64,000 nt of DNA from Acidobacteriota bacterium. GTDB taxonomy: Bacteria; Acidobacteriota; Thermoanaerobaculia; Gp7-AA8. The first letter of the stretch is position 1, and each line of letters starts with the position of its first letter. The stretch is from NCBI GenBank assembly GCA_019244185.1, contig JAFATB010000022.1, forward strand, positions 224,001 to 288,000, read 5' to 3'. The translations under genes and the position numbers were made by a program. Below the pieces are notes generated by a model. It saw nothing but the letters and a program-made list of their open reading frames with translations, did no database searches and was not told the origin of the DNA. Shown piece after piece: positions 14,842 through 38,346 of the stretch.

Positions 14842-14860
14842 CGCCGCGCCGCTTGGTACT

Positions 14861-17996: not shown

Positions 17997-19003
17997 AGAT
18001 TCTTCTCACCGGCGCCGCCGGTTTCATCGGGTTCCACGTCACGCAACGCCTGCTCGCGCGCGGCGACTCCGTCGTCGGCATCGACAACCTCAACGACTAC
18101 TACGATCCGTCGTTGAAGGACGCGCGTCTGGCGATGTTGCGCGAGTCGCCGCGGTTCACGTTCGAACGCGCCGACATCTCCGACACCGGCGCGGTGCTGC
18201 GACTCTTTGATATCCATCGACCCGAGCGCGTGGTCAACCTCGCCGCGCAGGCGGGCGTGCGCTACTCGCTCATCAATCCGCACGCGTACACGCAGAGCAA
18301 CGTCAGCGGATTTCTGAACATCCTCGAAGGCTGCCGCGCGACGAACGTCGAGCATCTCGTGTACGCGTCGTCGAGCTCCGTCTACGGTGCGAACACGCGC
18401 CAGCCGTTCGCCGAAGACGACAACGTCGATCATCCGGTGTCGCTGTACGCCGCGACGAAGAAGGCGAACGAGCTGATGGCGCATACGTACTCGCATCTCT
18501 TCGGCGTGCCCACCACCGGCCTGCGCTTCTTCACCGTGTACGGTCCGTGGGGGCGCCCCGACATGGCGCTCTTCAAGTTCACGCGCGGCATCCTCGAAGA
18601 GACGCCGATCGAGGTCTACAACGAAGGCCGCATGGTGCGCGACTTCACGTATGTCGACGACGTCGCGGAAGGCGTCGTGCGGGTGCTCGATCATGTCGCC
18701 GCGCCCGATCCCGACTTCGATCCCACGCAGCCGCGCCCGTCGCGCAGCCGCGCGCCGTATCGCGTCTTCAACATCGGCAACAACCGGCCGGTGCAGCTCC
18801 TCGACTACATCCACGTCCTCGAAGAGTGCCTCGGGAAGAAAGCAAGGATGGAACTGCTTCCGATGCAGCCGGGAGACGTGCCGTCGACGATGGCCGACGT
18901 CTCGCAGCTCGAGGAAGCGGTCGGCTTCCGGCCCGTCACCAGCGTCCGCGACGGCGTGGCCGCGTTCGTGGCGTGGTACAAAAACTACTATCGGATCCCC
19001 TGA
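17993..19003 (+). CDS. NAD-dependent epimerase, UDP-glucuronate 4-epimerase-like
   Basis: [45 protein letters not shown]. Confidence 0.92.
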
Positions 19004-19041
19004 TCCTCTTCAATCGGATCGGCGGAGCCGCGGAGAATCCG

Positions 19042-20385: not shown

Positions 20386-20394
20386 ACTGACGCC

Positions 20395-22386
20395 ATGTGC
20401 GGCATCGCCGGCGCATTTCTTCGAGGCGCGGGCTCGCGCGCCGAGCTCGAGTCGGTCGTGACCGGGATGACGTGTGCCATCGAGCACCGCGGCCCCGACG
20501 ACAGCGGCGTCTTCATCGACGAGCGCGCCGGACTCTCGCTCGGCTTCCGCAGGCTCTCGATCATCGACCTCTCGCCGGCCGGACATCAGCCGATGCAGTC
20601 GGCGAGCGGCCGTTACGTTCTCATCTACAACGGTGAGGTCTACAACTACGAGGCCGTGCGCGCGGAGCTCGAGCGCGCCGGCGCGATGTCGTGGCGCGGG
20701 CATTCGGATACGGAAGTCATGCTCGCGGCGATCGAACGCTGGGGACTCGACGGCGCGTTGTCGCGCTTCATCGGCATGTTCGCGATGGCGCTCTGGGATC
20801 GCGCGGAGCAGACGCTGCATCTCGTCCGCGACCGGCTCGGCGTGAAGCCGCTGTACTACAGCTTCGCCGGCAACGCGGTGCTGTTCGCGTCGGAGCTGAA
20901 GGCGATCGAAGCGCATCCGCGCTTCCGCGGCGAGATCGACCGCGACGTCGTCGGTTTGTACGCGCGCTACAGCTACATCCCCGCGCCGTACACGATCTAT
21001 CGCGACACGTGGAAGCTACCGCCGGGTTGCGTGCTCTCGATCAAGCCCGGCGACGCGCGTCCCGAGCCGCGCGCGTACTGGGACCTGCAGGAAGTCGCGC
21101 CACGCGCGATCGCCTCGCGGTTCCGCGGCGGCGATGACGAGGCGCTCGATGCGCTGGATGCGCTCGTCGCCGACGCCGTTCGTCTGCGCATGGTCGCGGA
21201 CGTGCCGCTCGGCGTGTTCCTCTCCGGCGGCATCGACTCCTCGCTGATCGCCGCGGCGATGCAGGCGCAGAACAGCAGTCCGGTGAAGACGTTCTCCATC
21301 GGCTTCCACGAGTCGCTCTACGACGAGGCGCAATACGCCGCCGCGGTCGCGCGCCATCTCGGCACCGCGCACACGGAGCTCTACGTCACGCCGCGCGAAG
21401 CGCAGGACGTCATTCCGCTGCTGCCGCGCATGTACGACGAGCCGTTCGCCGACTCCTCGCAGATCCCGACGTATCTCGTCTCGAAGCTCGCGCGGCAATC
21501 CGTCACCGTGAGCCTCTCCGGCGACGGCGGCGACGAGCTGTTCGGCGGCTACCACCGCTACTTCCTCGGGCAGAAACTGCTGCGCGGCGTCGCGCGCGTG
21601 CCGCGAGCGTTGCGTCCTCCCGCGGGTGCCGCGTTGCGCGCGGTGCCGGTGTGGATGTGGAACCGCCTGCTCTCGCCGGAGTCGCGCATCATGCCGCGCG
21701 CGCTGCGCCGCGACCGCGCCGGCGAACGGCTGCACAAGTTCGCGCGCGCAATGAACGACCGCAGCGACGACGCGCTCTACCACGAGATCGTCACGCAGTG
21801 GTCGAGCGTCGTCCCGGGCGCGCGTCCGCTGCCGATCGCGATCACCGCACGCGCCGCGCGCGCGCCGATCGCCGACACGATCGAGCGCATGATGTTCTTC
21901 GATCAGCTCTCGTATCTGCCCGACGACATCCTCGTGAAAGTCGATCGCGCGAGCATGGCCGTGAGCCTCGAGGCGCGCGAGCCGCTGCTCGATCATCGCC
22001 TCGTCGAGTTCGCGTGGTCGCTGCCGCTGTCGATGAAGATCCGCGACGGCAAGGGGAAGTGGATCCTGCGCAAGCTGCTGACGCGCTACGTGCCGGAGGC
22101 GCTCATCGAGCGGCCGAAGATGGGCTTCGGCCTGCCGATCGATCAGTGGCTGCGCGGTCCGCTACGCGGCTGGGCCGAAGAGCTGCTCGATCCGCGGCGG
22201 CTGCGGCAGGATGGTTTCTTCGATGCGACCGAGGTCCGCACGAAGTGGGACGAACACCTCGGCGGCCGCGGCGAATGGCAGCAGCCGCTCTGGACCATTC
22301 TCATGTTCCAGGCGTGGCGTGCGGAGCGCCGCGCATCAGCGGACGGAACGGCGCTTCCCGCCGCCGCCGCCACCGCAATCGGTTAG
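20395..22386 (+). CDS. asnB: Asparagine synthase (glutamine-hydrolysing) family amidotransferase, probably glycan-amidating
   Basis: N-terminal MCGIAG, HRGPD, RLSIID, FLSGGIDSS, SGDGGDELFGGY. Confidence 0.93.
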   Translation: MCGIAGAFLRGAGSRAELESVVTGMTCAIEHRGPDDSGVFIDERAGLSLGFRRLSIIDLSPAGHQPMQSASGRYVLIYNGEVYNYEAVRAELERAGAMSWRGHSDTEVMLAAIERWGLDGALSRFIGMFAMALWDRAEQTLHLVRDRLGVKPLYYSFAGNAVLFASELKAIEAHPRFRGEIDRDVVGLYARYSYIPAPYTIYRDTWKLPPGCVLSIKPGDARPEPRAYWDLQEVAPRAIASRFRGGDDEALDALDALVADAVRLRMVADVPLGVFLSGGIDSSLIAAAMQAQNSSPVKTFSIGFHESLYDEAQYAAAVARHLGTAHTELYVTPREAQDVIPLLPRMYDEPFADSSQIPTYLVSKLARQSVTVSLSGDGGDELFGGYHRYFLGQKLLRGVARVPRALRPPAGAALRAVPVWMWNRLLSPESRIMPRALRRDRAGERLHKFARAMNDRSDDALYHEIVTQWSSVVPGARPLPIAITARAARAPIADTIERMMFFDQLSYLPDDILVKVDRASMAVSLEAREPLLDHRLVEFAWSLPLSMKIRDGKGKWILRKLLTRYVPEALIERPKMGFGLPIDQWLRGPLRGWAEELLDPRRLRQDGFFDATEVRTKWDEHLGGRGEWQQPLWTILMFQAWRAERRASADGTALPAAAATAIG

Positions 22387-22881: not shown

Positions 22882-24816
22882 ATGAGACGCACAGCGGTAA
22901 TCTTCCTCTCCGTCGTCCTGCTCCTGCTCGCGGGAAGCGCGCTGGCCGGCACGTTCATCGTGCCCGACGACGACGAGATGGTGACGAAAGCAGATGCAAT
23001 CGTCGTCGGCACGGTCGAGGGCGCTTACGCGCAGGAAGCCGACAACACGATCGAAACGGTGTACGAGATTCGCCTCGAGCGCGCGGTCAAAGGGATCGCG
23101 GAACCCAATGCGTTGCTTCGCGTCGTGACGATGGGCGGCGTGATCGGCGACCGCGGCGTCATCGTGTCCGGCGAGGCGCAGTACGAACAGGGCGAGCGCG
23201 TGCTGGTCTTTCTCACGCGCGACCGCGGCCGCTGGCGCACGACCGATCTCACGCTCGGCAAATTCAAGTTCGCGACGTCGACGACCGGCGAGCGTCTTCT
23301 CGTCCGCGACATGGACGACGTCCTCGGCTGGGACCGCTCCGGCGCCGTGCATCAGGAGCCGGTGCGCAAAGAAGAAGGCTTCATGCGCTTCGTCGAGGCG
23401 CGCGCGCACGGACGCGCCGCGCAGCAGGACTACAGCGTCGATCCGTCCGAGGTGATGTTGCCGGCGAAACCGGCACCGCTTGCGAAGGCGTTGCAGCAGA
23501 TGAGCAGCTACGGATTGCAGCAGGCGGCGACGACGTACGACCCCGCGACGTACACGAGCTGGGTGAACAACACGCCGACGCGCTGGCCGAACATCTCCGC
23601 CGGCGTGACCTGGTACAAACGCTCCGATCAGAACATCTCCGGCGCCGCGGACGGCGGCGTGAGCGTGATTCAGGGCGGACTGGCCGCATGGACGAATGAA
23701 TGCGGCTCGAACATCAACCTGATGTACGGCGGCCAGACGGCGACGGTGTCGAAGAACTTCGACAGCACGAACGTCGTCGAGTTCAACGATCCGCAGGGCC
23801 GCGTTTCGGGGTCGTGGACCGGCGCCGGAACCGTGGCCATCACGTTCACGTCGTTCGGCAGCAACCACACGTTTCTCAACCGGTCGTGGCTCAGCATCAC
23901 CGACGCGGACGTCGTCTTTCAGGACGGCTTTCCGGGAACCAGCTCCGCGTTTGCGCCCGCGATGACGCATGAGCTCGGACATGGCATCGGCTGGCGCCAC
24001 TCGAACCAGAGCCATCTCAACGGCGGCACGTGCGACTCGACGGTCGAAGAGTGCACGAGCGCCGCGATCATGAACTCGAGCGTCAACGGCAACTACGGCT
24101 TCACGCTGCAGCCGTGGGACATTCACGCCGCGCAGGGCGTATATCCGGGCGGCACGTGCGGGGGCGGGACGACGTGCACGCCTCCGACGATCACGACGCA
24201 GCCGACGGCGAGGACGGTGGCGGCGGGGATCTCCACCACCATCACCGTCACCGCAACCGGCACCGGGCTCACGTACGAGTGGTACGTCGGCGCGCCGGGC
24301 AACACGGCCAATCGCATCCCCGGCGTCAGCGGGCCGTCGCTCACCGTGACGCCGGGCGCGACGACGACGTACTGGGTGCGCGTCGTCGGCCAATGCGGCA
24401 CCGCGAACAGCACCGCCGCGACCGTGACCGTCACGGCGGGAACGGCCGCCGCGAGCACGGCCTCGAAGCTGTATCTCGTCACGCCGTGCCGTACGCTCGA
24501 CACGCGCGCCGGCAGCCCGCTGTATCCCGCGAGCACGCAGCTCGTCACGATCACGGGTAAGTGCGGCGTGCCGGCCGGCGCGAAGGCGATCGTCATGAAC
24601 ATCACCGCGGTCACGCCGGCGTCGAACGGAACGCTCATCGCGTATCCCGGCACCGGCGAGGCGCCGCCGGGCACGAGCACGGTCAGCTACCGCACGGGTC
24701 GCACGCGTGCGAACAACTCGATCATGCGTCTCTCGTCCGATGGACGTCTGGCCATCTACAACAGCGGCCCGAGCGCGATTCACTTTCTCATCGACGTCAC
24801 GGGCTACTTCCAATGA
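22882..24816 (+). CDS. Secreted metzincin (matrixin/M10-like) metalloprotease with an Ig-like domain and the conserved CTD
   Basis: Signal peptide; HELGHGIGWRH; Met-turn AIMNS; CTD YLVTPCR...IDVTGYFQ. Confidence 0.85.
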   Translation: MRRTAVIFLSVVLLLLAGSALAGTFIVPDDDEMVTKADAIVVGTVEGAYAQEADNTIETVYEIRLERAVKGIAEPNALLRVVTMGGVIGDRGVIVSGEAQYEQGERVLVFLTRDRGRWRTTDLTLGKFKFATSTTGERLLVRDMDDVLGWDRSGAVHQEPVRKEEGFMRFVEARAHGRAAQQDYSVDPSEVMLPAKPAPLAKALQQMSSYGLQQAATTYDPATYTSWVNNTPTRWPNISAGVTWYKRSDQNISGAADGGVSVIQGGLAAWTNECGSNINLMYGGQTATVSKNFDSTNVVEFNDPQGRVSGSWTGAGTVAITFTSFGSNHTFLNRSWLSITDADVVFQDGFPGTSSAFAPAMTHELGHGIGWRHSNQSHLNGGTCDSTVEECTSAAIMNSSVNGNYGFTLQPWDIHAAQGVYPGGTCGGGTTCTPPTITTQPTARTVAAGISTTITVTATGTGLTYEWYVGAPGNTANRIPGVSGPSLTVTPGATTTYWVRVVGQCGTANSTAATVTVTAGTAAASTASKLYLVTPCRTLDTRAGSPLYPASTQLVTITGKCGVPAGAKAIVMNITAVTPASNGTLIAYPGTGEAPPGTSTVSYRTGRTRANNSIMRLSSDGRLAIYNSGPSAIHFLIDVTGYFQ

Positions 24817-24825
24817 TCCGCGAGC

Positions 24826-24861
24826 GGCGGGCGGCGGGTTTTGTCCCGCCGCCTGCCTTTT
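24826..24861 (+). terminator. Intrinsic terminator
   Basis: GGCGGGCGGCGGG-TTTTGT-CCCGCCGCCTGCC-TTTT just after the stop. Confidence 0.75.
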
Positions 24862-24872
24862 CCGAGAATTTC

Positions 24873-24914
24873 GTGAGCGGCGTCACCGGTTCATGTGCCA
24901 ATAACCCTTATCGT
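24873..24914 (+). promoter_or_regulatory. CRP-type box GTGAGCGGCGTCAC (24873-24886) with -10 TATCGT (24909-24914): class II geometry (-41.5)
   Basis: Box centre is 29.5 nt upstream of the first base of the -10 hexamer. Confidence 0.55.
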
Positions 24915-24930
24915 CAACCGGGTTCAACAC

Positions 24931-27258
24931 ATGAGCAAGCGAGCATCCTCTGTTCTCTTTGTCGCTGTCGTTGCGTTCATCGCGGCCACTCGTGCCGACG
25001 CGGGCATTCAGTCGCGCGCCGACGGAGACGTGATCTCGCCGCTCCTGCGGCCGATGGCGACCGGCACGCGCGTGCAGCTGCGCCACATTCCGGTGGGCGA
25101 TGCACTCGACGCGTCTCTCGATCTCGAGCGCTTCGAAGTGTGGGCGCCGAATGCGGAGCTCGTCGTGGAGCATGACGGCGGACAGCGCACGCACATCGCG
25201 CCGCCGCCGGTGCAGTACTTCCGCGGCACCGTCTCCGGCGATCCGGAATCGATGGTGTTCCTGGCGGTGCGCAGCGATGGCGCGACCGAGGGTCTCGTGA
25301 TTTCGAAGGAGCGCAGGTTCACGGTGCGCTCGCGTTCGCCGAAAGACATCGTGGTCGAAGACGTCGCGGCGACGGATGACTACACGCCGGGCGGCGGCTT
25401 CATGTGCGATCTCGACGGCGCGCCGGTCTCGTTGAAAGGCGGCACGCTTCCGAGCGTCCGCTCGCTGGTTTCCGGCATCGATCCGCAGACGAACGGCACG
25501 CTCAGCGCCACGGGCACGTGGACGCTGAACCTCGCCATCGAGACCGACAACGAGCTGTATGTCGACTTCAGCTCGAATCCGACCACTGTCGCGACGTTCA
25601 TCGGCAACGTCGTCGGCGCGGCATCGACGATCTACAAGCGCGATCTGCAGACGGATCTGCTCATCACGTTCTCGCGCATCCAGGCCACGGCGTCCGATCC
25701 GTGGACCATCAATCCCGGCTCGACCGGTACGTGGAACGGCTCGTCGACGACGTACACGACCTCGCACGCGCTCGCCGAACTCGGCGACGTCTGGGCCAAC
25801 AGCGGCACGCGTCCTTACAACGGTCCGCGTTCTTCCGTCGTGCTGATGAGCGGCAAGTCGCAGACCGCCGGCGTCGCGTGGATCGGCGCGTCGTGCACCG
25901 CCGACTCGCTTTGCAGCGGCGCGGGATGCGGCATCTTCAACGGCCACTACTCGGGCGGCTTTGCCTACATCGGCCTCGGCAATCCGAGCGCGACCGTGCC
26001 CAATCCCGATGCGACCGTCAATGGCGTTCCGTATGGTCTTCCGTCGACGAACTACTGGCCCGTCCTCGGCTTCGCGCACGAGCTCGGACACAACGTCGGC
26101 TCGCAGCACACGCACTGCGTCGCGCTGACCGCGGATCAGAAGACCGCGTACAACGTCACGCGCAGCTACATCGACGAGTGCTACGCCGGCGAAGGCGGCT
26201 GCTACGGTGGCGCCACGAGCGTTCCCCCGGAGAAGGGGACGATCATGAGCTACTGCCATCTCACGTTCTCCGGCGGCTTTCCGCAGAGCCGGTTTCTCTT
26301 CGGCAAAGCCGGTGAGCCGAGCGAGTTGATTCAGCAGGCGATCAAGAGCTACATCAACAGCCGCACGCCCGCGTCGCCGGCGATCAGCGCGCCCGCTTCG
26401 GTCGCATCGGGCGCGAGCGGCAACGCGTCGATCAATTCGCCCGTAGCCGGCCTCACGTACGACTGGACGATCACGAACGGCACGATCAACGGCAGTACGC
26501 AGGGCTCTTCGATCAACTTCACCGCGACGACGAACCCCGTCACGCTGCGCGTGCGCGGCACGAACACGTCGGGCTGCTCCGCATCCGATTCCGTGAACGT
26601 CACCGTCACCGCCGCCTGCACGCCGCCTTCGATCACCAGCGTCAATGCGAACGTCGTCATCACGAGCGGCACCACCGTCGAGTTGAACGCCACGGCGACC
26701 GGCACCGGACCGATCACGTATCAGTGGTACGTGGGAGAGTCGGGCGACGTCTCGACGCCGGCAGCGGTCGGCAATCCGATCAACGCCACGCCGTTGTCCA
26801 CGACCGCGTATTGGGTGCGCGCGTCGAACGCGTGCGGATCTGCGGACAGCCGCACCGTGCGTCTCGGGGTGGTCGACCCGCCGACGACGAGCGCATTGCT
26901 CTACATCGTCACGCCGTGCCGCCTCATCGATACACGCGGTCCCGCCGGACCGCACGGCGGACCCGCGATCGCGAACCTCGGCACGCGCGACGTCGCCGTC
27001 GCCGGCTCGTGCGGAATCCCCGCCGACGCCAAGGCCGTGGTCGCCAACATCACGGCGGTCGCGCCCGCGACCACCGGCTTCCTCGCTTTTTATCCCACTG
27101 GCTCTACCTGGCCAGGAAATAGCACCATGAACTACCGGACGGGCAAAACCCGCGCGAATAATGCGACACTGGTGTTGTCTGCTGCCGGAAGCGTCACGGT
27201 GTTGAATAATGGCTCTACGCAGAATTTCATTGTCGATGTGACCGGCTACTACAAGTGA
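24931..27258 (+). CDS. Secreted reprolysin-like (M12B) zinc metalloprotease with Ig-like domains and the CTD
   Basis: Signal peptide; LAIETDNE, GVAWIG, HELGHNVGSQH, GTIMSYC; CTD YIVTPCR...VDVTGYYK. Confidence 0.85.
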   Translation: MSKRASSVLFVAVVAFIAATRADAGIQSRADGDVISPLLRPMATGTRVQLRHIPVGDALDASLDLERFEVWAPNAELVVEHDGGQRTHIAPPPVQYFRGTVSGDPESMVFLAVRSDGATEGLVISKERRFTVRSRSPKDIVVEDVAATDDYTPGGGFMCDLDGAPVSLKGGTLPSVRSLVSGIDPQTNGTLSATGTWTLNLAIETDNELYVDFSSNPTTVATFIGNVVGAASTIYKRDLQTDLLITFSRIQATASDPWTINPGSTGTWNGSSTTYTTSHALAELGDVWANSGTRPYNGPRSSVVLMSGKSQTAGVAWIGASCTADSLCSGAGCGIFNGHYSGGFAYIGLGNPSATVPNPDATVNGVPYGLPSTNYWPVLGFAHELGHNVGSQHTHCVALTADQKTAYNVTRSYIDECYAGEGGCYGGATSVPPEKGTIMSYCHLTFSGGFPQSRFLFGKAGEPSELIQQAIKSYINSRTPASPAISAPASVASGASGNASINSPVAGLTYDWTITNGTINGSTQGSSINFTATTNPVTLRVRGTNTSGCSASDSVNVTVTAACTPPSITSVNANVVITSGTTVELNATATGTGPITYQWYVGESGDVSTPAAVGNPINATPLSTTAYWVRASNACGSADSRTVRLGVVDPPTTSALLYIVTPCRLIDTRGPAGPHGGPAIANLGTRDVAVAGSCGIPADAKAVVANITAVAPATTGFLAFYPTGSTWPGNSTMNYRTGKTRANNATLVLSAAGSVTVLNNGSTQNFIVDVTGYYK

Positions 27259-27268
27259 GGTGACCCTG

Positions 27269-27718
27269 ATGCGACGCCTGATCCTTTCCGCAGTTTTCTT
27301 CGCCCTGCTCGCCCTTCCGCGAATCGCTTCCGCGCAGAGCGGGCCGTACTCGTACTATCCGCTGTCGCCGTGCCGCGTCGTCGACACGCGCAATGCGAAC
27401 GGCACGAACGGCGGTCCCGCGTTCGGCACCGACGCCACGCGTAACTTCCAGATTCGCGGCTTCTGCGGCGTTCCGACGACTGCGAAGGCGGTGTCGCTGA
27501 ACGTAACCGTGACGCAGGCCAGCCAGGCCAGCTGGCTCGCCGTGTGGCCGTCCGGCACGGCCCGTCCCGTGGTCTCGATGATCAACTTCGAGCCGACCGA
27601 CCCCGCGCTCGCGAACGGCATCATCGTCGGCCTCTCGTCGGCGACACAGGACCTTTCCGTCTACAACAACTTCGGCAGCGTCCACGTGATCATCGACGTC
27701 ACCGGCTATTTCCAATAG
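27269..27718 (+). CDS. Small secreted protein consisting only of a signal peptide and the CTD
   Basis: GAGG RBS then MRRLILSAVFFALLALPRIASA; YYPLSPCRVVDTR...CGVP...IDVTGYFQ. Confidence 0.85.
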   Translation: MRRLILSAVFFALLALPRIASAQSGPYSYYPLSPCRVVDTRNANGTNGGPAFGTDATRNFQIRGFCGVPTTAKAVSLNVTVTQASQASWLAVWPSGTARPVVSMINFEPTDPALANGIIVGLSSATQDLSVYNNFGSVHVIIDVTGYFQ

Positions 27719-27744
27719 CCGGCGTCGCCGCGTGCGATCGGGAA

Positions 27745-27776
27745 CGGCGCGCCTCCGGGCGTGCCGAATTTTTTTT
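27745..27776 (+). terminator. Intrinsic terminator after the CTD-only gene
   Basis: CGGCGCGCC-TCCG-GGCGTGCCG-AA-T8. Confidence 0.75.
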
Positions 27777-27809
27777 GGGGCATTTCACGTTCCTCGCCGC
27801 AGGTCCATC

Positions 27810-30800
27810 ATGCTCAAGCCATCGAACGCGTTCCTGCGGCGCACGCTCCCGCTTTGTCTCGCGCTTGTTCTGCTCGCGCCGTCTGTGTTTGCACAGGCAC
27901 TCACCGTGACGCGGTTCGCCGGCTCCGATTCCGGACCGGGTTATGCCGACGGCACGGGCAGCGCCGCACGCGTCCATGACGTGCGGGCGATTGCAACGGA
28001 TGCAGCCGGGAACGGCTACATTGTCGATCGGACGCAAAACGTCATTCGCAAGATGACGCCATCGGGCGTGGTGACGACGTTTGCCGGCCGTGAAGGAGCG
28101 TCGGGATTCGCGGATGGGCGTGGCGCTGCTGCGCGCTTCGACAGCCCGGAAGGCATCGCCGTGGATGATCGCGGCTACGTCTACGTCGCCGACTCCGCTA
28201 ACGGACGGATCCGTGTGATCTCTCCCGAAGGCGTGGTCACGTCACTCACTCCGGCGTACGCGTTCAACTGGCCGGATGGTGTGGCCGTGGACAATGTGGG
28301 CAACGTGTATGTGGCCGAGGTGACCGGCCATACCGTGCGCGTCATCCGCCCCAACGGAGCGGTGTCGCTGGTCGCCGGCTCGGCGGGTGTCTCAGGAACG
28401 GCGGACGGGATTGGCGCCGCGGCGAGGTTCGGGAACATCTTCAGTCTCACCTGGAATCGTGCGACGGGAGAGTTGCTCGTCGCCGAGTCCGACCGCATTC
28501 GGAAAATCACGATCGATCGCGCGACGCTGCAAGGCACGGTCGCTACAGTGGCGGTCCCCGGCAATTACGTGAATGCAGTCACGGTCGATGCTTCCGGCGT
28601 TCTGTATGCGGCGGTCAGCACCAGCGTCGTGTTGCGCGTCAGCGGGGGCGTTGCCTCCATCTACGCCGGCAGTCAGTATCACCTGCAGGGCAGCAACGAC
28701 GGCTCGCTCGATGCGGCGAGGTTCATTTTTCCCTCCGGGATCGCTGCCGCCCCCGGCGGTGTCCTGTACGTGGTTGATTTCGGCACGACCGACGTCCGCA
28801 AGCTTGCCGGCGGCTTCGTCACGACCATCGCCGGCACGCCGGTGCGATACGGGTCGTCCGGTGGTACGTGCGATACGACGCAGTTCCGCTACCCGACGGA
28901 TACGGTCGTGGACAGTCACGGCAACGTCTTCGTTGCGGACCAGCTCGTGATCGCCAAGATCACGCCCGCCTGTCAGGTGCAGGTGTTTGCCGGCTCTTAC
29001 GACCACTACGTTTCGCACGACGGAACGGGAGTCAACGCCGCGTTTTCCAGCCTCGGGACGCTCGCCATCGACGCCAACGACAATCTGTACGCCGTCGATG
29101 CGAATGCGATCCGCAAGATCACGCCGGCCGGAGTCGTCACGACGTACGCTGGAGTCGCGGACCAGAGCGGCAGCGCGAACGGCAACGGAATCAACGCGCG
29201 TTTCTCGTCTCCATTCGGCATCGCCGTCGACGCCTCCGGCAACGTGTTCGTCGCCGATCAGAACCACGTCATCCGCAAGATCACGACCTCCGGAGACGTG
29301 AGTCTGGTTGCCGGTGCCGTCGGTCAGCAGGGCTCCTCGGACGGCACGGCGGGAGCGGCGCGTTTCAATGTGCCGGCGGGAATGGCCTTCGGAGCCGACG
29401 GAACTCTCTACGTCGCCGACTACATGAATGACACCATCCGGAAAATCACGATGCCGGACGCGGTCGTCTCGACGCTCGCCGGTAGTCCTGGCCAGTGGGG
29501 GTGGACGGACGGCACCGGTGCGAGCGCACTGTTCGACGCCCCGTCCGACGTGGTCATCGGCAGTGACGGTCGTCTCTACGTCTCCGATGGGAACCACGTC
29601 ATCCGGCAGATCGTGGGCAATGTCGTGTCGACCGTGGCCGGCCGCGCCCGGCAGTCGGGGAACGTCGACGGAACCGGCCAGATCGCGCGGTTCCACACGA
29701 ACGGCGGTCTCAGCGCAGACACCCAGGGGAATCTCTACATCGCCGACGTGGCTGCGTACAACGTCCGCCGCGCGCGGCTGCCGGGCATCGACGACGTCGC
29801 GACGGCATCGACGACGACGCCGGCCCTCCACACGACCGTACAGCTTGGAACCGCGCCCGCCACGGCGACGAGCTGGCAGTGGAGCATCGTGCGCCGGCCG
29901 TCCGGCTCGACGGCGGAGCTCTCGTCTTCGATCAGCCGCACTCCGACGTTTGCTCCGGACGTCGCCGACGTCTATACGCTCATGCTGCGTGCCGAAGGCG
30001 CGGCCGGCGTACGCTACTCCACTATCGACGTCGCGCCCACGGATCCGTGTTCACCGATTGCGTCCGTCGTTGCGACGCTGAGTGGTTCCTCCTGCGTCGC
30101 GTCGGGCAGCACCGCCACGGTGAACGTCAGCGGAGGCGGCGCGGTGACGTACCAGTGGGGCTGGCGCTCGGTCTCCGCCGGCACGATCACGCCGCTCCCG
30201 GGGAAGACATCCTCAGCCTATACGATCGATGCCGCGGACTTTGGCGCCGGCAGCCCGGCCTATCTCGTTGCCACCGTGACATCCGAATGCGGTGTCGTCA
30301 CGACGTCCAACGAAGTGCCTGTCAGCACGGGTCCGTCGGCGACGATCTCCGCGAGCAGCAATGTCTTCGCGAATGCCGCAGACAACTACGCCTCCGTATC
30401 TGCCGCCGGAGCGTCCGCGACCTACGCATGGTCGATCACGAACGGCACCATCTCCGCGGGGCAGGGAACGAATCGCATCGTCTACACCGCGGGAGCGAGC
30501 GGCGAAGTGGTGCTGAGCGTGACGGTCACCGATGGTTGTCCCACGACGAGCGAGGTGCATGTGCCGGTCGTGCCGCGCCCCGCGGGTGCATCGATGCTGT
30601 ATCTCGTCACGCCGTGCCGCGTGTTCGACAGCCGTAACGGCGCGCCGCTCGCGAATCACAGCATTCGCACGGTCGCGATCGGAGGCTCGTGCGGCGTGCC
30701 GGTGGACGCGCGGAGCATCGCGGCGAACATCACCGTCGTCGCGCCGGCGACGACCGGATGGGTGTCGCTCTTTCCCGACGCGAACAACTGGCCGGGCACG

Positions 30801-30938
30801 AGCACGCTCAACTATCGCGGCGGCAAAACGCGGGCGGGGAACGCGATCGTCAGTCTGAACGCGAGCGGACAGCTCGCGCTGAAGAACGAAGGCTCGAGTG
30901 TGAACGTGCTCATCGATGTCACCGGCTATTTCAAGTAA
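27810..30938 (+). CDS. Secreted NHL-repeat (beta-propeller) protein with PKD/Ig-like domains and the CTD, copy 1
   Basis: Signal peptide; repeated DG.G.AARF..P.GIAVD..GN.YVAD...IRKI; CTD YLVTPCR...IDVTGYFK. Confidence 0.88.
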   Translation: MLKPSNAFLRRTLPLCLALVLLAPSVFAQALTVTRFAGSDSGPGYADGTGSAARVHDVRAIATDAAGNGYIVDRTQNVIRKMTPSGVVTTFAGREGASGFADGRGAAARFDSPEGIAVDDRGYVYVADSANGRIRVISPEGVVTSLTPAYAFNWPDGVAVDNVGNVYVAEVTGHTVRVIRPNGAVSLVAGSAGVSGTADGIGAAARFGNIFSLTWNRATGELLVAESDRIRKITIDRATLQGTVATVAVPGNYVNAVTVDASGVLYAAVSTSVVLRVSGGVASIYAGSQYHLQGSNDGSLDAARFIFPSGIAAAPGGVLYVVDFGTTDVRKLAGGFVTTIAGTPVRYGSSGGTCDTTQFRYPTDTVVDSHGNVFVADQLVIAKITPACQVQVFAGSYDHYVSHDGTGVNAAFSSLGTLAIDANDNLYAVDANAIRKITPAGVVTTYAGVADQSGSANGNGINARFSSPFGIAVDASGNVFVADQNHVIRKITTSGDVSLVAGAVGQQGSSDGTAGAARFNVPAGMAFGADGTLYVADYMNDTIRKITMPDAVVSTLAGSPGQWGWTDGTGASALFDAPSDVVIGSDGRLYVSDGNHVIRQIVGNVVSTVAGRARQSGNVDGTGQIARFHTNGGLSADTQGNLYIADVAAYNVRRARLPGIDDVATASTTTPALHTTVQLGTAPATATSWQWSIVRRPSGSTAELSSSISRTPTFAPDVADVYTLMLRAEGAAGVRYSTIDVAPTDPCSPIASVVATLSGSSCVASGSTATVNVSGGGAVTYQWGWRSVSAGTITPLPGKTSSAYTIDAADFGAGSPAYLVATVTSECGVVTTSNEVPVSTGPSATISASSNVFANAADNYASVSAAGASATYAWSITNGTISAGQGTNRIVYTAGASGEVVLSVTVTDGCPTTSEVHVPVVPRPAGASMLYLVTPCRVFDSRNGAPLANHSIRTVAIGGSCGVPVDARSIAANITVVAPATTGWVSLFPDANNWPGTSTLNYRGGKTRAGNAIVSLNASGQLALKNEGSSVNVLIDVTGYFK

Positions 30939-31020
30939 GGTGACGTCGATTCTGTTTTGACAGAGCCCGAGAGTCACCTCAGATCCCTCATCGCGGCCGT
31001 GCCGGTGATCGCGTACCGCG
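30939..31020 (+). pseudogene. Duplicated 5' fragment of the downstream flippase gene plus its upstream spacer
   Basis: Near-identical to 34324-34405 (MTEPESHLRSLIAAVPVIAYR), then breaks off. Confidence 0.85.
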
Positions 31021-31041
31021 CCGCCGGTACCGGGTCGCGCG

Positions 31042-31203
31042 GTGGTCTCGATGATCAACTTCGAGCCGGACCGATCCGGCGCTCGCGAACGGCATCATCG
31101 TCGGCCTCTCATCGGCGACAGGACCGTCCGTTGACAACGTTCGAACTCCAACGGCGCGCCGATTTTTCTTTGAGCATTTCGCGTTCCTCGCCGAAGGTCC
31201 ATC
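31042..31203 (+). pseudogene. Degenerate copy of the 3' part of the CTD-only gene and of the 27743-27809 leader
   Basis: GTGGTCTCGATGATCAACTTCGAGCCG...GCTCGCGAACGGCATCATCGTCGGCCTCTC matches 27569-27636 with indels; GCATTTC.CGTTCCTCGCCG.AGGTCCATCATG matches 27780-27812. Confidence 0.85.
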
Positions 31204-34200
31204 ATGCCCAAACCATCGGACGCACACGTGCGGCTCTCGTTCTGTCTCGTACTGCTCCTGCTTGCGTCCGCCTCGTTTGCACAGGAGCTCACCGTCACGC
31301 GTTTTGCCGGGACGGATGTGGGAAAGGGCCATACGGACGGCACCGGCAGCGACGCTCGATTCAGCATGCCCGAGGCGGTTGCTGTCGATTCCGCGGGCGA
31401 CGTCTACATCGCAGATTCCGAACAGAACGTCATACGCAAGATGACGCCGGCGGGGGTCGTGACGACGTTTGCGGGCCGGGTGGGCGTCGAAGGATCCGCT
31501 GACGGTCATGGCGGTGCGGCGAGTTTCTCAGCGCCGCGAGGAATCGCGGTCGACTCGCGCGGATACGTCTATGTCGCCGATCGTGATTCCGGAGCGGTTC
31601 GCCGGATCTCGCCGCAGGGCGTCGTAACTCACGTCGTCCCTGCCGGCACCTTTCAGTATCCGCAAGGGATCGCCGTGGACAACCTCGGCAACATCTACCT
31701 TTCAGACGGTTACTTCGGACAGGTTTATGTGATTCGTCCGGACGGCAACGTGTCGCTGGTGGCGGGATCCACGACACCGGGGCACGCCGACGGGATCAGT
31801 GATCAGGCGTCGTTCTACGCCATCTATGGACTTGCGTGGAACGCGCAGACCGGCGAGCTGCTCGTTGCAGATGATGATCGCGTTCGGAAAATCGCGATCA
31901 ATTCATCGACGCTGGTGGGAACCGTCACGACGGTCGCGGTTCTCGAACCCGACGTTTTGGCGGTCACGGTCGATGCGTCGGGCGTCGTTTACGCCGCGCT
32001 CGATACCGACGCGATCATGCGCATCAGTGGTGGCTCAGCCACCGTCTATGCGGGCGCCGGGATGCCGACGGGTTCGGACGATGGTGCGCTGATCCAGGCG
32101 CGGTTCCTCTATCCGAGGGGCATTGCTGCCGCACCTGGCGGAGTGCTGTACGTGGTCGATGCGGAAGGACAGAACGTACGGAAGATCGCCGGCGGATTCG
32201 TCTCAACGATCGCGGGTACCGCGGCGCCATCGGGCTTGTCCGGCGGCACGTGCGACACAGTTCGGTTTTCCGCGCCGATTGCCACTGTCCGGGACAGGCA
32301 CGGTAATCTGTTCGTGTCCGATTTTCAGAACTCGACCATCGACAAAATCACGCCGGCCTGTCAGGTGGAAGTATTCGCCGGCCGCGCCAATCAATTCATC
32401 GCTCAGGACGGCACGGGCACCGATGCGTCGTTCTGGTCTCTCGGCTCGCTCGCGATCGACGCGAATGACAATCTGTTTGTTGCTGACGGTCATGCCGTTC
32501 GCAAGATCGCGCCGGATGCCGTGGTCACGACGTACGCGGGAAACCCTAATATCCCAGGTACTGCCGACGGCGATGGCGCCAGCGCGCGCTTCCATTACGT
32601 GGACAGGCTTGCCGTCGATGCCGCCGGAAACGTCTTCGTCACCGATGAATCGCACCGCATCCGGAAGATCTCCACGTCACGTGACGTCAGCGTCGTTGCC
32701 GGCGGCCTCAATGATCCCGGCTCCAGCGATGGAACGGGTACCGCGGCGCGGTTCGATGAACCGGCTGGACTGGCGTTCGGTCCGGACGGCGCGTTGTATG
32801 TCGCCGATGCCTTCAACCGCACCATCCGGAAGGTGACGATGCCGGACGCCGTCGTCACGACGATCGCCGGCGCGCCGGAAACGATCGGTTCCGCCGATGG
32901 GACTGGTGCCGATGCGCGCTTCAACCTGCCGTTTGACCTCGCTTTCGGGAGCGACGGCAATCTGTACGTTTCCGATGAGCCAGGCACGATCCGGCGGATC
33001 GCGGGGAATGTCGTAACGACGGTGGCCGGCCTCCAGGAGCAGCAGGGGAACGTCTCCGGCACGGGAAGGCTCGCGCGCCTCGGGTATGCCGGCGGACTCA
33101 CCGCTGATGCGCAGGGCAATCTTTTCATCATCGACGGTGGCGCGAAGAACATTCGGCGCGCGCAACTCCCGGGGATCGCCGACATTGCCACCGCATCGAC
33201 GACCACGCCTGCGATCCACACCGTCGTGCAACTCGGAACGGCGCCCGATAGCGCGACGAGCTGGCAGTGGAGCATCGTGCGGCGGCCCTCCGGTTCGACC
33301 GCCGAGCTTTCGTCGACGAACATTCGCAATCCCACCTTCACGCCCGATGTCGCGGACCTTTACACGCTGGTGCTACGGGCGGAAGGTCCAGCCGGCGTCC
33401 GCTACTCGAGCGTCGATCTGCTGCCCACCGATTCGTGCGGACTGATCGCATCGGTGGTGGCGACGCTCGACTCGTCCTGTCTCGGAGGCGGAGGAACGGC
33501 GACGGTCACCGTCACCGGTGGTGGCGCGGTCACGTATCAATGGGGTTGGCGTGCGATCTCCGGCGGCACGATCACGCCGCTCGCCGGCAAGACGTCCGCT
33601 ACGTACACGTTGAACGCCGCCGACTTCAGCAGCAGTACGCCCAAGTATCTCGTCGCCGTGGTGACGTCGGAATGCGGCGTCGTGACGTCGTCGAACGAGT
33701 TGCGCATCACCGCGGCCCCGTCGATCGTAATCTCCGCGAGCAGTCGCGTCTTTTCCGGGACGACGGCAAACTACGCCTCCGTGTCTACCGCCGGAGCGTC
33801 CGCGACCTACGCATGGTCGATCACCAACGGCACCATCACCGCGGGGCAGGGGACGAATCGCATCGTCTACACCGCGGGAGCGAGCGGCGAAGTCGTGCTG
33901 AGCGTGACGGTCACCGACGGCTGTCCCACGACGAGCGAGGTGCATGTGCCGGTCGTGCCGCGTCCCGCGGGTGCATCGATGCTGTATCTCGTCACGCCGT
34001 GCCGCGTGTTCGACAGCCGTAACGGCGCGCCGCTCACGAATCACAGCATTCGCACGGTCGCGATCGGAGGCTCGTGCGGCGTGCCGGTGGACGCGCGGAG
34101 CATCGCGGCGAACATCACCGTCGTCGCGCCGGCGACGACCGGATGGGTCTCGCTCTTTCCCGACGCGAACAACTGGCCGGGCACGAGCACGCTCAACTAT

Positions 34201-34323
34201 CGCGGCGGCAAAACGCGGGCGGGGAACGCGATCGTCAGTCTGAACGCGAGCGGACAGCTGGCGCTGAAGAACGAAGGCTCGAGTGTCAACGTGCTCATCG
34301 ATGTCACCGGCTATTTCAAGTAA
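31204..34323 (+). CDS. Secreted NHL-repeat protein with PKD/Ig-like domains and the CTD, copy 2 (tandem paralog)
   Basis: Colinear with 27810-30938; last ~180 aa almost identical. Confidence 0.88.
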   Translation: MPKPSDAHVRLSFCLVLLLLASASFAQELTVTRFAGTDVGKGHTDGTGSDARFSMPEAVAVDSAGDVYIADSEQNVIRKMTPAGVVTTFAGRVGVEGSADGHGGAASFSAPRGIAVDSRGYVYVADRDSGAVRRISPQGVVTHVVPAGTFQYPQGIAVDNLGNIYLSDGYFGQVYVIRPDGNVSLVAGSTTPGHADGISDQASFYAIYGLAWNAQTGELLVADDDRVRKIAINSSTLVGTVTTVAVLEPDVLAVTVDASGVVYAALDTDAIMRISGGSATVYAGAGMPTGSDDGALIQARFLYPRGIAAAPGGVLYVVDAEGQNVRKIAGGFVSTIAGTAAPSGLSGGTCDTVRFSAPIATVRDRHGNLFVSDFQNSTIDKITPACQVEVFAGRANQFIAQDGTGTDASFWSLGSLAIDANDNLFVADGHAVRKIAPDAVVTTYAGNPNIPGTADGDGASARFHYVDRLAVDAAGNVFVTDESHRIRKISTSRDVSVVAGGLNDPGSSDGTGTAARFDEPAGLAFGPDGALYVADAFNRTIRKVTMPDAVVTTIAGAPETIGSADGTGADARFNLPFDLAFGSDGNLYVSDEPGTIRRIAGNVVTTVAGLQEQQGNVSGTGRLARLGYAGGLTADAQGNLFIIDGGAKNIRRAQLPGIADIATASTTTPAIHTVVQLGTAPDSATSWQWSIVRRPSGSTAELSSTNIRNPTFTPDVADLYTLVLRAEGPAGVRYSSVDLLPTDSCGLIASVVATLDSSCLGGGGTATVTVTGGGAVTYQWGWRAISGGTITPLAGKTSATYTLNAADFSSSTPKYLVAVVTSECGVVTSSNELRITAAPSIVISASSRVFSGTTANYASVSTAGASATYAWSITNGTITAGQGTNRIVYTAGASGEVVLSVTVTDGCPTTSEVHVPVVPRPAGASMLYLVTPCRVFDSRNGAPLTNHSIRTVAIGGSCGVPVDARSIAANITVVAPATTGWVSLFPDANNWPGTSTLNYRGGKTRAGNAIVSLNASGQLALKNEGSSVNVLIDVTGYFK

Positions 34324-34341: not shown

Positions 34342-35556
34342 TTGACAGAGCCCGAGAGTCACCTCAGATCCCTCATCGCGGCCGTGCCGGTGATCGCGTA
34401 CCGCGCGGCCGCCGGCGGCATGCCGATCCTCCTCGGCCTCTTCATCGCGCACCGGTGGGGCGTGACGGAGGTGGCGCCGTTCGCGGTGGCCAACGCGATC
34501 GTGGCGGTGGCGCTGGTCGTGGCGGACTGGGGGGCAACGCGCGCGCTGCCGCGCAATCTCGCGATGCTCGCGGGTGACGCCGGCGCGCGTTTCCTCGCAT
34601 CGGCGAACGCCTTTCGTCTGCTCATCTCCGCGGCGATGGTCGTGCTCGCGGCGGTGCTCGCCGCGGCCGGCGTTATTCAGCGCGACGTCGCGATTTATCT
34701 CGCGATCCTGTTTCCGCTGTGCGTGCTCTCGCTCGTCTCGACCAACGCGCTGAGCGAGCGCATCGTCGTGCGCGACACCCGTCGCGTCGGCATCGCCGTC
34801 GGCTCCGGATTGTCGGCGTTCGCATTGCTCGCCGCGCTTGCCGTGCGCGCGCACGAAGGGCCGCGCTGGTTCGTCGCCGCGTACGTCGCCGGAAAGCTCG
34901 TCGAATCGCTCGTGATGTCTACCGGACGATGGTGGGTGCTCGCAGTGCAGTCGCACGAGCTGCGCGCGACGGCCGCGAGTCTCTGGCCATTCGGCGCGCA
35001 GATGATCCTCGGCGTGATCTATTCGCGCCTCTCCGTCTTCACCGTGGAGCACATGGCATCGCGGACGGAGCTCGGCGTCTTCTCCGTCGCGGCGGCGCTG
35101 CAGTCGGCGCTGCTGCTCATCCCCACGTCGCTCGCGCTGATCTATTTCCCCGAGATGACGCGCCTCGCGAACGACGCGCGCGGCGTGCGCACGATCCTGG
35201 TTCGATATACGATCATCTCCGCAACCGGCGTGACATGTGGATTGACGGCCTTGGGCGTGTTTGCGTCTCGTGTAACGGCTGTTCTGAAGGTGCCGCGCGC
35301 CTTCACGCCGTTCGTCGTCGCGTTCGCGGCGCTGGCGCTGCTGAGTATCTTCAGCACGATCGCCGGCTTTCTCATGCAGGCGCGCGGGCAGGAACATCGC
35401 GCCGCGCGACTCTCGATCGTGACGCTCGGACTCGCGCTCGTCTATCAGCTGACGGCGTTGCACTGGTGGGGACTTCCAGGCATCATCGCGGCCGTCGCGG
35501 CGGCGGAGCTCACCACGGTCGCGGTCTTCGGCGCGGCGTTGCGGCGCGCCGCCTGA
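34342..35556 (+). CDS. Wzx-like oligosaccharide flippase
   Basis: About 12 hydrophobic segments; ADWG, IYSR, ELGVFSVA, YFP patterns typical of PST exporters; glycan-locus context. Confidence 0.7.
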   Translation: MTEPESHLRSLIAAVPVIAYRAAAGGMPILLGLFIAHRWGVTEVAPFAVANAIVAVALVVADWGATRALPRNLAMLAGDAGARFLASANAFRLLISAAMVVLAAVLAAAGVIQRDVAIYLAILFPLCVLSLVSTNALSERIVVRDTRRVGIAVGSGLSAFALLAALAVRAHEGPRWFVAAYVAGKLVESLVMSTGRWWVLAVQSHELRATAASLWPFGAQMILGVIYSRLSVFTVEHMASRTELGVFSVAAALQSALLLIPTSLALIYFPEMTRLANDARGVRTILVRYTIISATGVTCGLTALGVFASRVTAVLKVPRAFTPFVVAFAALALLSIFSTIAGFLMQARGQEHRAARLSIVTLGLALVYQLTALHWWGLPGIIAAVAAAELTTVAVFGAALRRAA

Positions 35557-35569
35557 CGAGAGGCCGCGC

Positions 35570-36214
35570 GTGACGGTCATCGACAAACGCCGCGTCCTCG
35601 AACGACCGGACGCGCTGCGCGACGTCGTCATCGAGCTCGGCTGCGGTCCGGCCAAGCGCCATCCGAACTCGATCGCCGTCGATCTGATCGATACGGACGC
35701 GGCCGACATCGTCGGCGATGCGCTCGAAGTGCTGCAACGCTTCCCCGACGCGAGCGCGCGGCTCGTGACCTCGTCGCACTTTCTCGAGCACGTCAGCGAT
35801 CCCGCGCCGCTGCTCGACGAGATGAGCCGTCTGCTCGCGCCGGGAGGCACGATCGAGATCGTGGTGCCGCATTTCTCGCATCCGTACTTTCACTCCGATC
35901 CGACGCATGCGAATCGTCTCGGCTTCGGCTTGTACACGATGTCGTATTACGCGCGCGATCCGATCTTCCGGCGGCAGGTGCCGGGCTACGTGCGCCGAGA
36001 CCGGCTCACGTTGCGCAGCGTCGATCTGCACTTCAAATCCGCGCGGCCGTTCTATGGCCGCTACGCGATCAAACGCGTCCTCGGCACACTCTTCAACTCC
36101 TGCCGCTATCTGCAGGAGCTGTGGGAAGAGAACCTCTGCTACATCTTTCCCTGCTACGAGATCCGCTACGTCCTCGGGCGCACCGACGACGTCGCGCGGC
36201 GGCGAGCCGAATGA
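35570..36214 (+). CDS. Class I SAM-dependent methyltransferase domain protein
   Basis: IELGCG, SHFLEH, RLLAPGG, VPHFS..DPTH. Confidence 0.8.
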   Translation: MTVIDKRRVLERPDALRDVVIELGCGPAKRHPNSIAVDLIDTDAADIVGDALEVLQRFPDASARLVTSSHFLEHVSDPAPLLDEMSRLLAPGGTIEIVVPHFSHPYFHSDPTHANRLGFGLYTMSYYARDPIFRRQVPGYVRRDRLTLRSVDLHFKSARPFYGRYAIKRVLGTLFNSCRYLQELWEENLCYIFPCYEIRYVLGRTDDVARRRAE

Positions 36215-37314
36215 GCGCGCCGCTGCGGATTCTCGGATTGTCCACGTACCCGGAGCACGCGGCGGCGACGCGTTACCGTCTGCTGCAGTACGTCGCGCCG
36301 CTCGCCGCTGAGGGGATCGCGCTCGACGTGCGGCCGTTTCTCACCGATCGCGTGTTCGACACGCTTTATGACCGCCGCCGCATGCTGCGTACCGCGGGTG
36401 GCATCACCGCGGGTATCGTGCGCCGCGCGTGCGACGTCACGCGTCTCGGGGCGTACGACGCCGCGTTCGTACAACGCGAGGCCGCGCTCATCGGACCGCC
36501 GTTCTTCGAATGGCTGGTGCAGCGTCGCATGCCCTTGGTTCTCGACCTCGACGACTCGACGTACATCGGGCAGCGGAGCGACGTCTTCGGCGTGGTCGCG
36601 GCGCTCCTCAAGTCGCGCAAGAAGCCGGAACGCCTCATCCGCTGGTCCGAACACGTCGTCTGCGGCAACCCGACCATCGCCGCGTACGTCGCGCAGTTCG
36701 GCGTCCCGACGACCGTGCTGCCGACGATCGTCGACGTCGCGCGATTCGTGCCGCGCGCGACGCCAGGCGACGGCGTGCCGGTCATCGGCTGGATCGGGAC
36801 GCATTCGACGTTCGCGTACTTTCGACGGCTCGTGCCGCTGCTCGAAGCGCTCGCGCGGCGCGAGCGGTTTCGCGTGCGCATCGTCGGCGCGGGCGTCGAT
36901 GATGTGCGCATCGCGGGCGTGGAGGTCGAGTCGCTGCCGTGGAAGCTCGAACGCGAGCTCGCCGACCTGCAGTCGTTCGACGTCGCCGTGTATCCGATCG
37001 CTTCCGACGCGTGGGCGGCGGGGAAGTCGGGCTTCAAGGCGATCCAGTATCTCTCCTGCGGCATTCCGTACGTCGCGTCACCGGTGGGCGTGACCGCCGA
37101 CATCGGCGTCGCCGGCGAAACGAACTTTTTCGCGACGACCGATGATGAATGGATCGATGCGCTCGCGCGGCTGCTGCGCGACGCGGAGCTGCGCGCGGCG
37201 ATGGCGCGGCGGGGGAGGGCGTACGCGGTCGAGCACTATTCGCGAGCGCGAACGGCGGAAGTGCTCGCCGGCGTCTTGCGCGCGGCTGCCGAAAAAAAAC
37301 GCAGCCGCCCGTGA
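36211..37314 (+). CDS. Glycosyltransferase family 4 (GT-B)
   Basis: Start MSAPLRIL; TRYR, DLDD, IGWIG, KSGFKAIQYLSCGIP..ASPVG. Confidence 0.88.
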   Translation: MSAPLRILGLSTYPEHAAATRYRLLQYVAPLAAEGIALDVRPFLTDRVFDTLYDRRRMLRTAGGITAGIVRRACDVTRLGAYDAAFVQREAALIGPPFFEWLVQRRMPLVLDLDDSTYIGQRSDVFGVVAALLKSRKKPERLIRWSEHVVCGNPTIAAYVAQFGVPTTVLPTIVDVARFVPRATPGDGVPVIGWIGTHSTFAYFRRLVPLLEALARRERFRVRIVGAGVDDVRIAGVEVESLPWKLERELADLQSFDVAVYPIASDAWAAGKSGFKAIQYLSCGIPYVASPVGVTADIGVAGETNFFATTDDEWIDALARLLRDAELRAAMARRGRAYAVEHYSRARTAEVLAGVLRAAAEKKRSRP

Positions 37315-37325
37315 GGGCGGCTGCG
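37292..37325 (-). terminator. Intrinsic terminator for the minus-strand beta-helix gene
   Basis: A8 followed by CGCAGCCGCCC-GTGA-GGGCGGCTGCG; the GT4 stop codon lies in the loop. Confidence 0.75.
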
Positions 37326-37348
37326 CGGGGACTGCGGATGCCGTCGCG

Positions 37349-38287: not shown

Positions 38288-38346
38288 TCAATTCCTCCTT
38301 AGTTTTGTGGACGGAGTGAAGTATACGCTCCTTTGCGGCACGCGTC

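Follow-up and report, generated by a model that had tools for sequence, protein, structure and literature searches.

The window analysed here, 64,000 nucleotides of an Acidobacteriota genome (contig JAFATB010000022.1, positions 224,001–288,000), encodes six exported proteins that end in a common domain. We propose, with a probability of roughly 60%, that this domain is one third of a non-covalent, three-fold envelope anchor of the SLH/CWB2 kind, here split into cargo-borne and free subunits. The proposal draws on the architectures in which the domain occurs, its predicted fold and three-fold assembly, the swapping of tails on the same cargo among relatives, and gene context. Below, G000 denotes the source genome of the window, other G codes its relatives and C codes contigs.

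A six-frame motif scan found six open reading frames (ORFs) that each terminate in a single copy of the domain, five in tandem on the plus strand across 22882–34323 (starting at 22882, 24931, 27269, 27810 and 31204) and the sixth on the minus strand (62950–60500). From the PCR motif to the stop codon the domain spans 108–116 residues. All six N-termini are signal-peptide-like by hydropathy and by eye, and none of the six proteins has a C-terminal membrane helix (best 19-residue hydropathy, 0.42–1.17). The six domains score E 1e-44 to 1e-50 against the family profile, which rejects a chance match; a cytoplasmic role was also rejected. An initial annotation, made from the letters alone, had singled out six exported proteins with a shared terminal domain, no transmembrane tail and no family name, and on these points it was borne out.

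The cargo carried by these proteins is varied. The first gene (22882..24816, +) encodes an exported metzincin protease with an Ig stalk and one C-terminal domain copy (24463–24813); it bears the HExxHxxGxxH motif, and its only protease matches in Pfam, to M12/M43, are weak, so that its earlier label as M10-like was not confirmed. The other assignments agree with Pfam: an M12B (reprolysin-like) protease with a PKD/Ig stalk (24931..27258, +; copy at 26893–27255; Reprolysin_5, E 2e-14), two NHL-propeller proteins (27810..30938, +, exported, with a PKD stalk and a copy at 30591–30935; 31204..34323, +, copy at 33976–34320) and an exported glucose/sorbosone-type pyrroloquinoline quinone dehydrogenase with a PKD stalk (60500..62950, −; copy at 60503–60850; GSDH, E 3e-41). 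The diversity claimed for all six needs trimming in two places. The third gene (27269..27718, +) encodes a stand-alone subunit of 149 residues, signal peptide plus domain only, which is predicted to form a homotrimer. The two NHL genes arose by tandem duplication (27758–31026 versus 31153–34411, 74% identical) and are therefore not independent cases of domain attachment. Between them lies a relic of part of the stand-alone gene (31042..31138, +; 90% identical to 27569–27667), which was left by the duplication that created the second NHL gene.

Beyond the window, the domain belongs to a large family. An iterated profile yielded 12 matches in 10 frames of G000: the six window genes, one more C-terminal copy (C10), two N-terminal copies on fibre-like proteins (C23 and C2), placed directly after the signal peptide, and one protein with three tandem copies (C26). 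The statement that the domain occurs always once and always at the C-terminus thus holds for the six window ORFs and fails elsewhere in the same genome. The C10 protein (G000:C10:154691-156343, L001) is a seventh single-copy cargo, with an N-terminal domain that is cohesin-like by eye and PKD_6 as its only Pfam match. The profile search suggested by the initial annotation retrieved 37,792 domain representatives at 50% identity, in positions that are not only C-terminal, mainly from Acidobacteriota and Actinomycetota; the number of exported proteins that carry it in a genome ranges from a few to dozens, and one genome has at least 150 scored matches. A phylum-wide search, scoring at most 29 candidates per genome, found the domain in 5 of 151 genomes, and a separate search showed the family in other Acidobacteriota orders too.

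Four architectures recur among the relatives: stand-alone, single C-terminal, single N-terminal on fibres, and triplet. The top 150 representatives, ranked by score and hence weighted towards multi-copy proteins, contain three copies in 116 cases, six in 20, five in 11, nine in 2 and four in 1, and 153 of their 174 tandem runs comprise exactly three; the domain sits at the C-terminus in 117 of them, at the N-terminus in 16, at both ends in 11 and at an internal position in 6. Bryobacterales and Terriglobales often carry triplets (76 loci), which are also present on 25 plasmids of Streptomyces, Arthrobacter, Curtobacterium and Paenarthrobacter, where domain copies are found on RHS and cutinase-family proteins. 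In the source genus the single C-terminal form prevails (62 of 104 classed domains). Two of seven N-terminal-type proteins scanned match the S74 chaperone, one of them also with a YadA head; S74 ensures fibre trimerisation (PMC10769870). The two cysteines, earlier taken as invariant, are not so family-wide: among 521 domains both are present in 308, neither in 127, the first alone in none and only the second region in 27, with 59 unscorable. The first cysteine never occurs without the second among the 462 scorable domains, and this strict co-occurrence makes an optional disulfide plausible where both are present.

No named family claims the domain. Pfam gave no match at E 0.1 for single or triplet forms, NCBIfam, PHROGs and PADLOC gave none, and PDB sequences gave none with a single-protein or a profile query; the Atlas returned only unnamed clusters, and newer Pfam lists for 120 longer homologues name cargo families only, with '-' for short domain-only proteins. 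A triplet query against 50,697 phage records found no match, and the domain is therefore not treated as a phage part; viral jelly-rolls do turn up with it in fold searches. No description of the domain was found in the literature searched, which lay mostly outside subscription papers and excluded supplements.

Structure prediction pointed to a jelly-roll that works in threes. The AlphaFold2 (AF2) model of the domain is all-beta (predicted local distance difference test, pLDDT, 96.8), and its top match in both fold searches is the tip of the Bdellovibrio Bd2133 MAT fibre (PDB 8ond, 8ok3), with Z 9.9, root-mean-square deviation (rmsd) 2.8, 108 residues aligned and 10% identity; Foldseek gave E 2e-4 and a template-modelling (TM) score of 0.63. 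The remaining matches are jelly-rolls at Z 6–7.7, below the tip, among them CBM35-type modules at Z 6–7 (7.0 or lower), a family that has no Pfam match on the window domains. With 10–13% identity across searches and no match from PDB sequence profiles, the likeness to Bd2133 is at the level of fold only. The Bd2133 tip is a trimeric beta-sandwich (PMC10769870), and it is the distal tip of one fibre, whereas the present domain moves between protein contexts, at the N-terminus in fibres and at the C-terminus in enzymes.

The triplet was modelled by AF2 as one rigid body (predicted TM score 0.93), which overlays single-chain C1q (model residues 22–395, Z 7.4, rmsd 5.4, 214 aligned) and the APRIL-BAFF-BAFF trimer (Z 6.5) over most of its length. 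Overlays on C1q/TNF heads (Z 5.8–7.4) come with 6% identity and an rmsd of ~5 Å, and their Z values lie within the range of common arrangements, and no Pfam match links the domain to these heads. Mixed trimers are known among C1q/TNF-type heads. For the stand-alone protein, the homotrimer prediction scored 0.97 against 0.03 for the best of three controls (pLDDT 96), with contact agreement of at least 97% between runs. Of the solved pairs used for calibration, 20 of 30 attained the score mark, as did 1 of 23 monomers; all were two-copy cases, unlike the three copies modelled here. The predicted interface takes in many of the best-conserved positions (R13, N55, P77, S80, N83, D120 and G123). D16, T17 and R18, equally conserved and absent from the interface list, may form a ligand site or a structural bridge.

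The proposed split form would consist of the stand-alone protein and its cargo partners. For the stand-alone protein, 476 homologues of comparable length were retrieved; the top 120 are 62–100% identical, and the named homologues are from Thermoanaerobaculia, which puts the window in or close to that class of Acidobacteriota. All 11 genomes inspected that have cargo with a single C-terminal copy also have the stand-alone gene (G000, G004, G005, G008, G010, G017, G028, G171, G184, G186 and G189), a count that leaves aside weak single matches in G001, G002 and G009; G024 fits the pattern by frame lengths only. G018, G067, G185 and G187 have no stand-alone gene and carry tandem or fibre copies only. 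Cargo and stand-alone copies are distinct subtypes: among 62 cargo and 16 stand-alone copies, a cargo motif occurs in 38 and 1, respectively, and a stand-alone motif in 1 and 14. Triplets that have diverged show a polarity. In 35 of 49 diverged Cys-bearing triplets the copy closest to the cargo subtype is repeat 1, against 51 of 158 near-identical ones; at positions 1, 2 and 3 of the 49, the cargo motif is found 21, 3 and 0 times and the stand-alone motif 0, 1 and 12 times, and the near-identical triplets show no such polarity. The simplest reading of these patterns is that the single-chain triplet and the trimer of cargo plus free subunits would be two forms of one asymmetric head.

The stand-alone protein could also be the main subunit of an S-layer-like trimer coat into whose lattice the cargo inserts its own domain copy. 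This picture draws on a small, exported protein more conserved than the cargo copies (mean identity 0.66 versus 0.47), on its gene being often present in two or three copies per genome and on stand-alone triplets in two other genomes. A terminator-like hairpin and T run follow the gene immediately (27745..27776, +); the site is a consensus match only, and such sites are not commoner in the region than in shuffles. The codon score of the gene lies at the 89th percentile, against 8–62 for the five cargo genes, but codon bias in G000 is weak and could not decide protein abundance, and the mature part alone reaches the 70th. Two single-chromosome genomes with 12 and 15 matches, that is 4 and 5 long triplet proteins, have no evident stand-alone form, which shows that some carriers do without a free subunit. 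As a rule, the S-layer proteins covered in a review combine a lattice segment with an anchoring one (PMC8559796). We regard the coat as unlikely, though the best placed of the rivals; coat and anchor are compatible, and both can hold.

That the domain serves as an anchor is suggested by what replaces it on the same cargo. A query with the M12B cargo alone found the protein in 13 of 31 relative genomes, and where the jelly-roll domain is missing or rare, this protease and the metzincin upstream of it end in other tails. Across the protease orthologues these are an unrelated three-repeat helical module (G003, G006, G007, G011, G014, G016, G018), FG-GAP-like repeats (G009, G013, G191), another duplicated C-terminal domain (G012, G191) or a short basic tail (G015, G016, G182). 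A profile was used for the helical module; the other tails were identified by eye. The nearest orthologues of the 22882 protein (63–66% identical; G013, G191) end in FG-GAP-like repeats, and remoter homologues in the other duplicated domain or the basic tail. The duplicated domain on metzincin homologues (L205 and L207, in G012 and G191) is itself without a family name. The helical module, ~105 residues with three H-x-x-x-L-R repeats, reaches 37 copies per genome and has no convincing name in Pfam, PDB or the Atlas; one copy in G000 (C2:444-755) ends an RHS-repeat protein.

The exchange extends across whole genomes. Among 29 same-genus genomes, all at ≥90% completeness, 8 are rich in the jelly-roll domain (≥9 copies, with ≤1 helical module), 12 are rich in the helical module (≥10 copies, with ≤3 jelly-roll domains), 9 are rich in neither and none in both (Spearman −0.57; −0.56 without G002). 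SLH occurs in the same circle of relatives, with 5–11 matches in G012, G013 and G026. Two of these three SLH-rich genomes, G012 and G026, have csaB-like genes adjoining SLH genes; none was found in G000 (99% complete), G005 or G013 by searches that detected the controls. No case of SLH in place of the domain on orthologous cargo was found, and the dehydrogenase cargo was not found in the five genomes tried. Three adjoining exported SLH-repeat proteins of 260–295 residues in G026 (L186, C188) are a possible small S-layer family of the SLH/csaB lineage.

Gene context points to a surface polysaccharide. The five tandem domain genes interrupt a locus whose upstream half (12160..22386, +) encodes a DegT aminotransferase, a nucleotidyltransferase, a GDP-mannose dehydratase, epimerases, a UDP-sugar dehydrogenase and an AsnB-type amidotransferase. 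The downstream half (34384..47079) encodes a flippase-like membrane protein (no Pfam match), methyltransferases, family 4 glycosyltransferases (GT4s), a GT4/WbpL-like initiator and an O-antigen-ligase-like protein. Surface-polysaccharide genes adjoin the protease operon in G000, G005, G008 and G184, where it bears the jelly-roll tail, and in G011, G188 and G190, where the tail is helical. Domain genes lie among glycan genes also in G028 and G171, which belong to another family, and in the Bryobacterales genome G176. G000 has LptD, a pilus secretin and a type II secretion-like cluster (on C26), which make export of the folded domain proteins across the outer membrane possible; no dedicated transporter was seen adjoining domain genes in the loci viewed. 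Where the initial annotation had suggested an export, anchoring or assembly tag, its anchoring and assembly half is supported by tail exchange on the same cargo, the polysaccharide locus and the predicted three-fold unit. The export half is doubtful at best in view of the N-terminal, triplet and stand-alone forms and of carriers in Streptomyces and Micrococcales.

For an envelope anchor, these observations can be assembled into the following scheme. Domain proteins would leave the cytoplasm by Sec and then possibly through the type II system encoded on C26, the domain folding with a disulfide where the cysteine pair is present. Three jelly-roll domains would pack around a three-fold axis, and the assembled head would be captured non-covalently on a cell-surface polymer, where it would hold an enzyme, a propeller or a fibre. 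The polymer is most likely a glycan made by the surrounding locus, from which Ig/PKD stalks may keep the cargo away. The three copies could have any of three sources: a single chain with a tandem triplet (Bryobacterales, Terriglobales, Actinomycetota), N-terminal copies from the three chains of a trimeric fibre, or, in the window, one cargo-borne copy completed by 149-residue stand-alone subunits in a mixed trimer.

Several observations weigh against this scheme. Because monoderms as well as diderms carry the module, a common ligand is not self-evident, and the Bd2133 tip is the outward, distal end of an adhesin and not the base (PMC10769870). Glycan genes are absent beside the operon in G017 and G189 and beside one stand-alone pair in G005, in the stretches examined, as well as from the three plasmid loci viewed; the flippase-like gene is found in only 5 of 8 domain-rich genomes (and 0 of 21 others), and the 38419 gene does not track the domain across genomes. 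A pure filler role does not explain the stand-alone triplets, and the likeness between stand-alone and cargo copies is only slightly higher at the interface (0.40) than elsewhere (0.33). The genomes compared for tail exchange are kin and not independent, the richness thresholds were chosen after the counts were seen, and an rpoB tree (18 rows, 3′ part of the gene only, without G009, G013, G016 and far relatives) is mostly unresolved, too much so for independent switches to be counted, and does not reject one origin for the domain-rich genomes (p-AU 0.157); the exclusion of jelly-roll and helical modules may therefore reflect few events. The 5′ part of rpoB on G000:C19:48948-53126 matches relatives poorly, and another rpoB 5′ piece ends C16:58331-59893, which suggests a chimeric contig end in the G000 assembly.

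The fold results leave some room, less than for a coat, for a trimerising lectin-like head that directs enzymes away from the producer's own surface, towards external substrates or foreign cells (chitin, plant or microbial glycans). The best match is an adhesin tip, CBM35-type modules follow, and plasmid-borne copies sit on RHS and cutinase-family proteins. The fibre copies, however, lie at the N-terminal end, opposite the S74 chaperone, and in Bdellovibrio fibres the N-terminal end is expected to be cell-proximal, according to Caulton et al. (PMC10769870). The cargo is also too varied for one substrate, and genome-wide tail exchange together with an own polysaccharide locus fits self-attachment better.

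Among known systems, the proposed anchor resembles SLH (PF00395) and CWB2 (PF04122), which attach non-covalently to secondary cell-wall polymers, most in its logic: a unit of three placed at one or the other end of many unrelated exported proteins, three copies forming one pseudo-trimeric unit (here by prediction only) and genes that adjoin a surface-polymer locus in the window and several relatives, with exceptions in G017, G189 and the plasmids. In C. difficile, CWB2 proteins adjoin the locus for their ligand PSII (PMC4973711). The present module differs from both in being an all-beta jelly-roll, where theirs are mainly helical (three-pronged in SLH), and in that some chains carry just one copy while the stand-alone subunit is encoded separately. 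Membership in SLH was rejected on the missing Pfam match, the all-beta model and the lack of csaB in G000, even though SLH-rich, csaB-bearing genomes are among its relatives; two SLH matches in G000 belong to other proteins. CWB2 was rejected for want of a profile match to single or triplet forms, and dockerin for want of a Pfam match and on an all-beta model in place of paired calcium-binding helical repeats.

Type IX secretion system (T9SS) and sortase-type signals are C-terminal sorting elements. With the T9SS C-terminal domain (CTD), PEP-CTERM and LPXTG the present domain shares its place as a common terminal element on diverse signal-peptide cargo, but it is not confined to the C-terminus, has no membrane helix or basic tail, is predicted to remain a folded trimer and is found in monoderms. 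PEP-CTERM/LPXTG-type signals were rejected because the domain proteins lack a hydrophobic C-terminal stretch; one exosortase-family gene lies elsewhere in G000. The T9SS CTD (TIGR04183) was rejected because the domain is neither strictly C-terminal nor always single and is present in monoderms; searches for TIGR04183 and SprA in G000 found no match, and the same searches found none in controls either. Streptomyces, Arthrobacter, Curtobacterium and Paenarthrobacter are monoderm. A recognition signal for an outer-membrane export machine, like the T9SS CTD, is thus very improbable even though most copies in the genus are single and C-terminal on unrelated Sec-exported proteins and G000 is a diderm with a type II secretion-like cluster, since N-terminal, triplet and stand-alone forms exist, no dedicated transporter adjoins the genes in the loci viewed, and in these monoderm carriers there is no outer membrane to be crossed.

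New here are the form in which single copies go with a free partner, the prediction of a homotrimer, the polarity of repeats and the exchange of tails across genomes. If the domain is a true anchor, SLH and CWB2 would have a first counterpart made wholly of beta structure, and for abundant uncultured soil bacteria the surface proteome would become readable from sequence; a split version, with cargo bringing one subunit, would be a ready display scaffold. The review PMC8559796 describes Gram-negative S-layer proteins as without a widespread anchoring domain. The tail swap also exposes a second, helical module without a name and makes the ligand question approachable by sister-genome comparison. 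More speculatively, one may picture a new surface-display system of monoderm and diderm soil bacteria in which the free subunit builds a trimer or coat and compatible enzymes plug in. Within the genus, interchangeable, undescribed anchoring chemistries (jelly-roll trimer, three-repeat helical module, FG-GAP-like propeller, and SLH) would then be swapped by lineages genome-wide together with the surface polysaccharide; we hold this wider picture only tentatively.

Other features of the window stand apart from the domain. Divergent from the protease operon, 22336–22821 (−) encodes a small exported protein with a basic RRxVR-type tail, whose position is kept in G005, G008, G017, G184, G186 and G189; 19 predicted G000 proteins matched the tail pattern, some by chance. 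Two tandem paralogous membrane proteins without Pfam matches (67% DNA identity) are encoded at 1717–5855 (−). Near the dehydrogenase gene, 59088–60552 holds a 433-residue gene of 59% GC, without a match in Pfam, NCBIfam or PADLOC, flanked on each side by a copy of the final 54 bp of the dehydrogenase gene. The second copy (59088..59141, −; 54 bp, 94%) thus lies beyond a 1.3-kb lower-GC gene, an arrangement such as would be seen after insertion or local duplication. An intergenic tandem repeat at 58106–58373 has a 64-bp unit in 4.2 copies with 85% matches.

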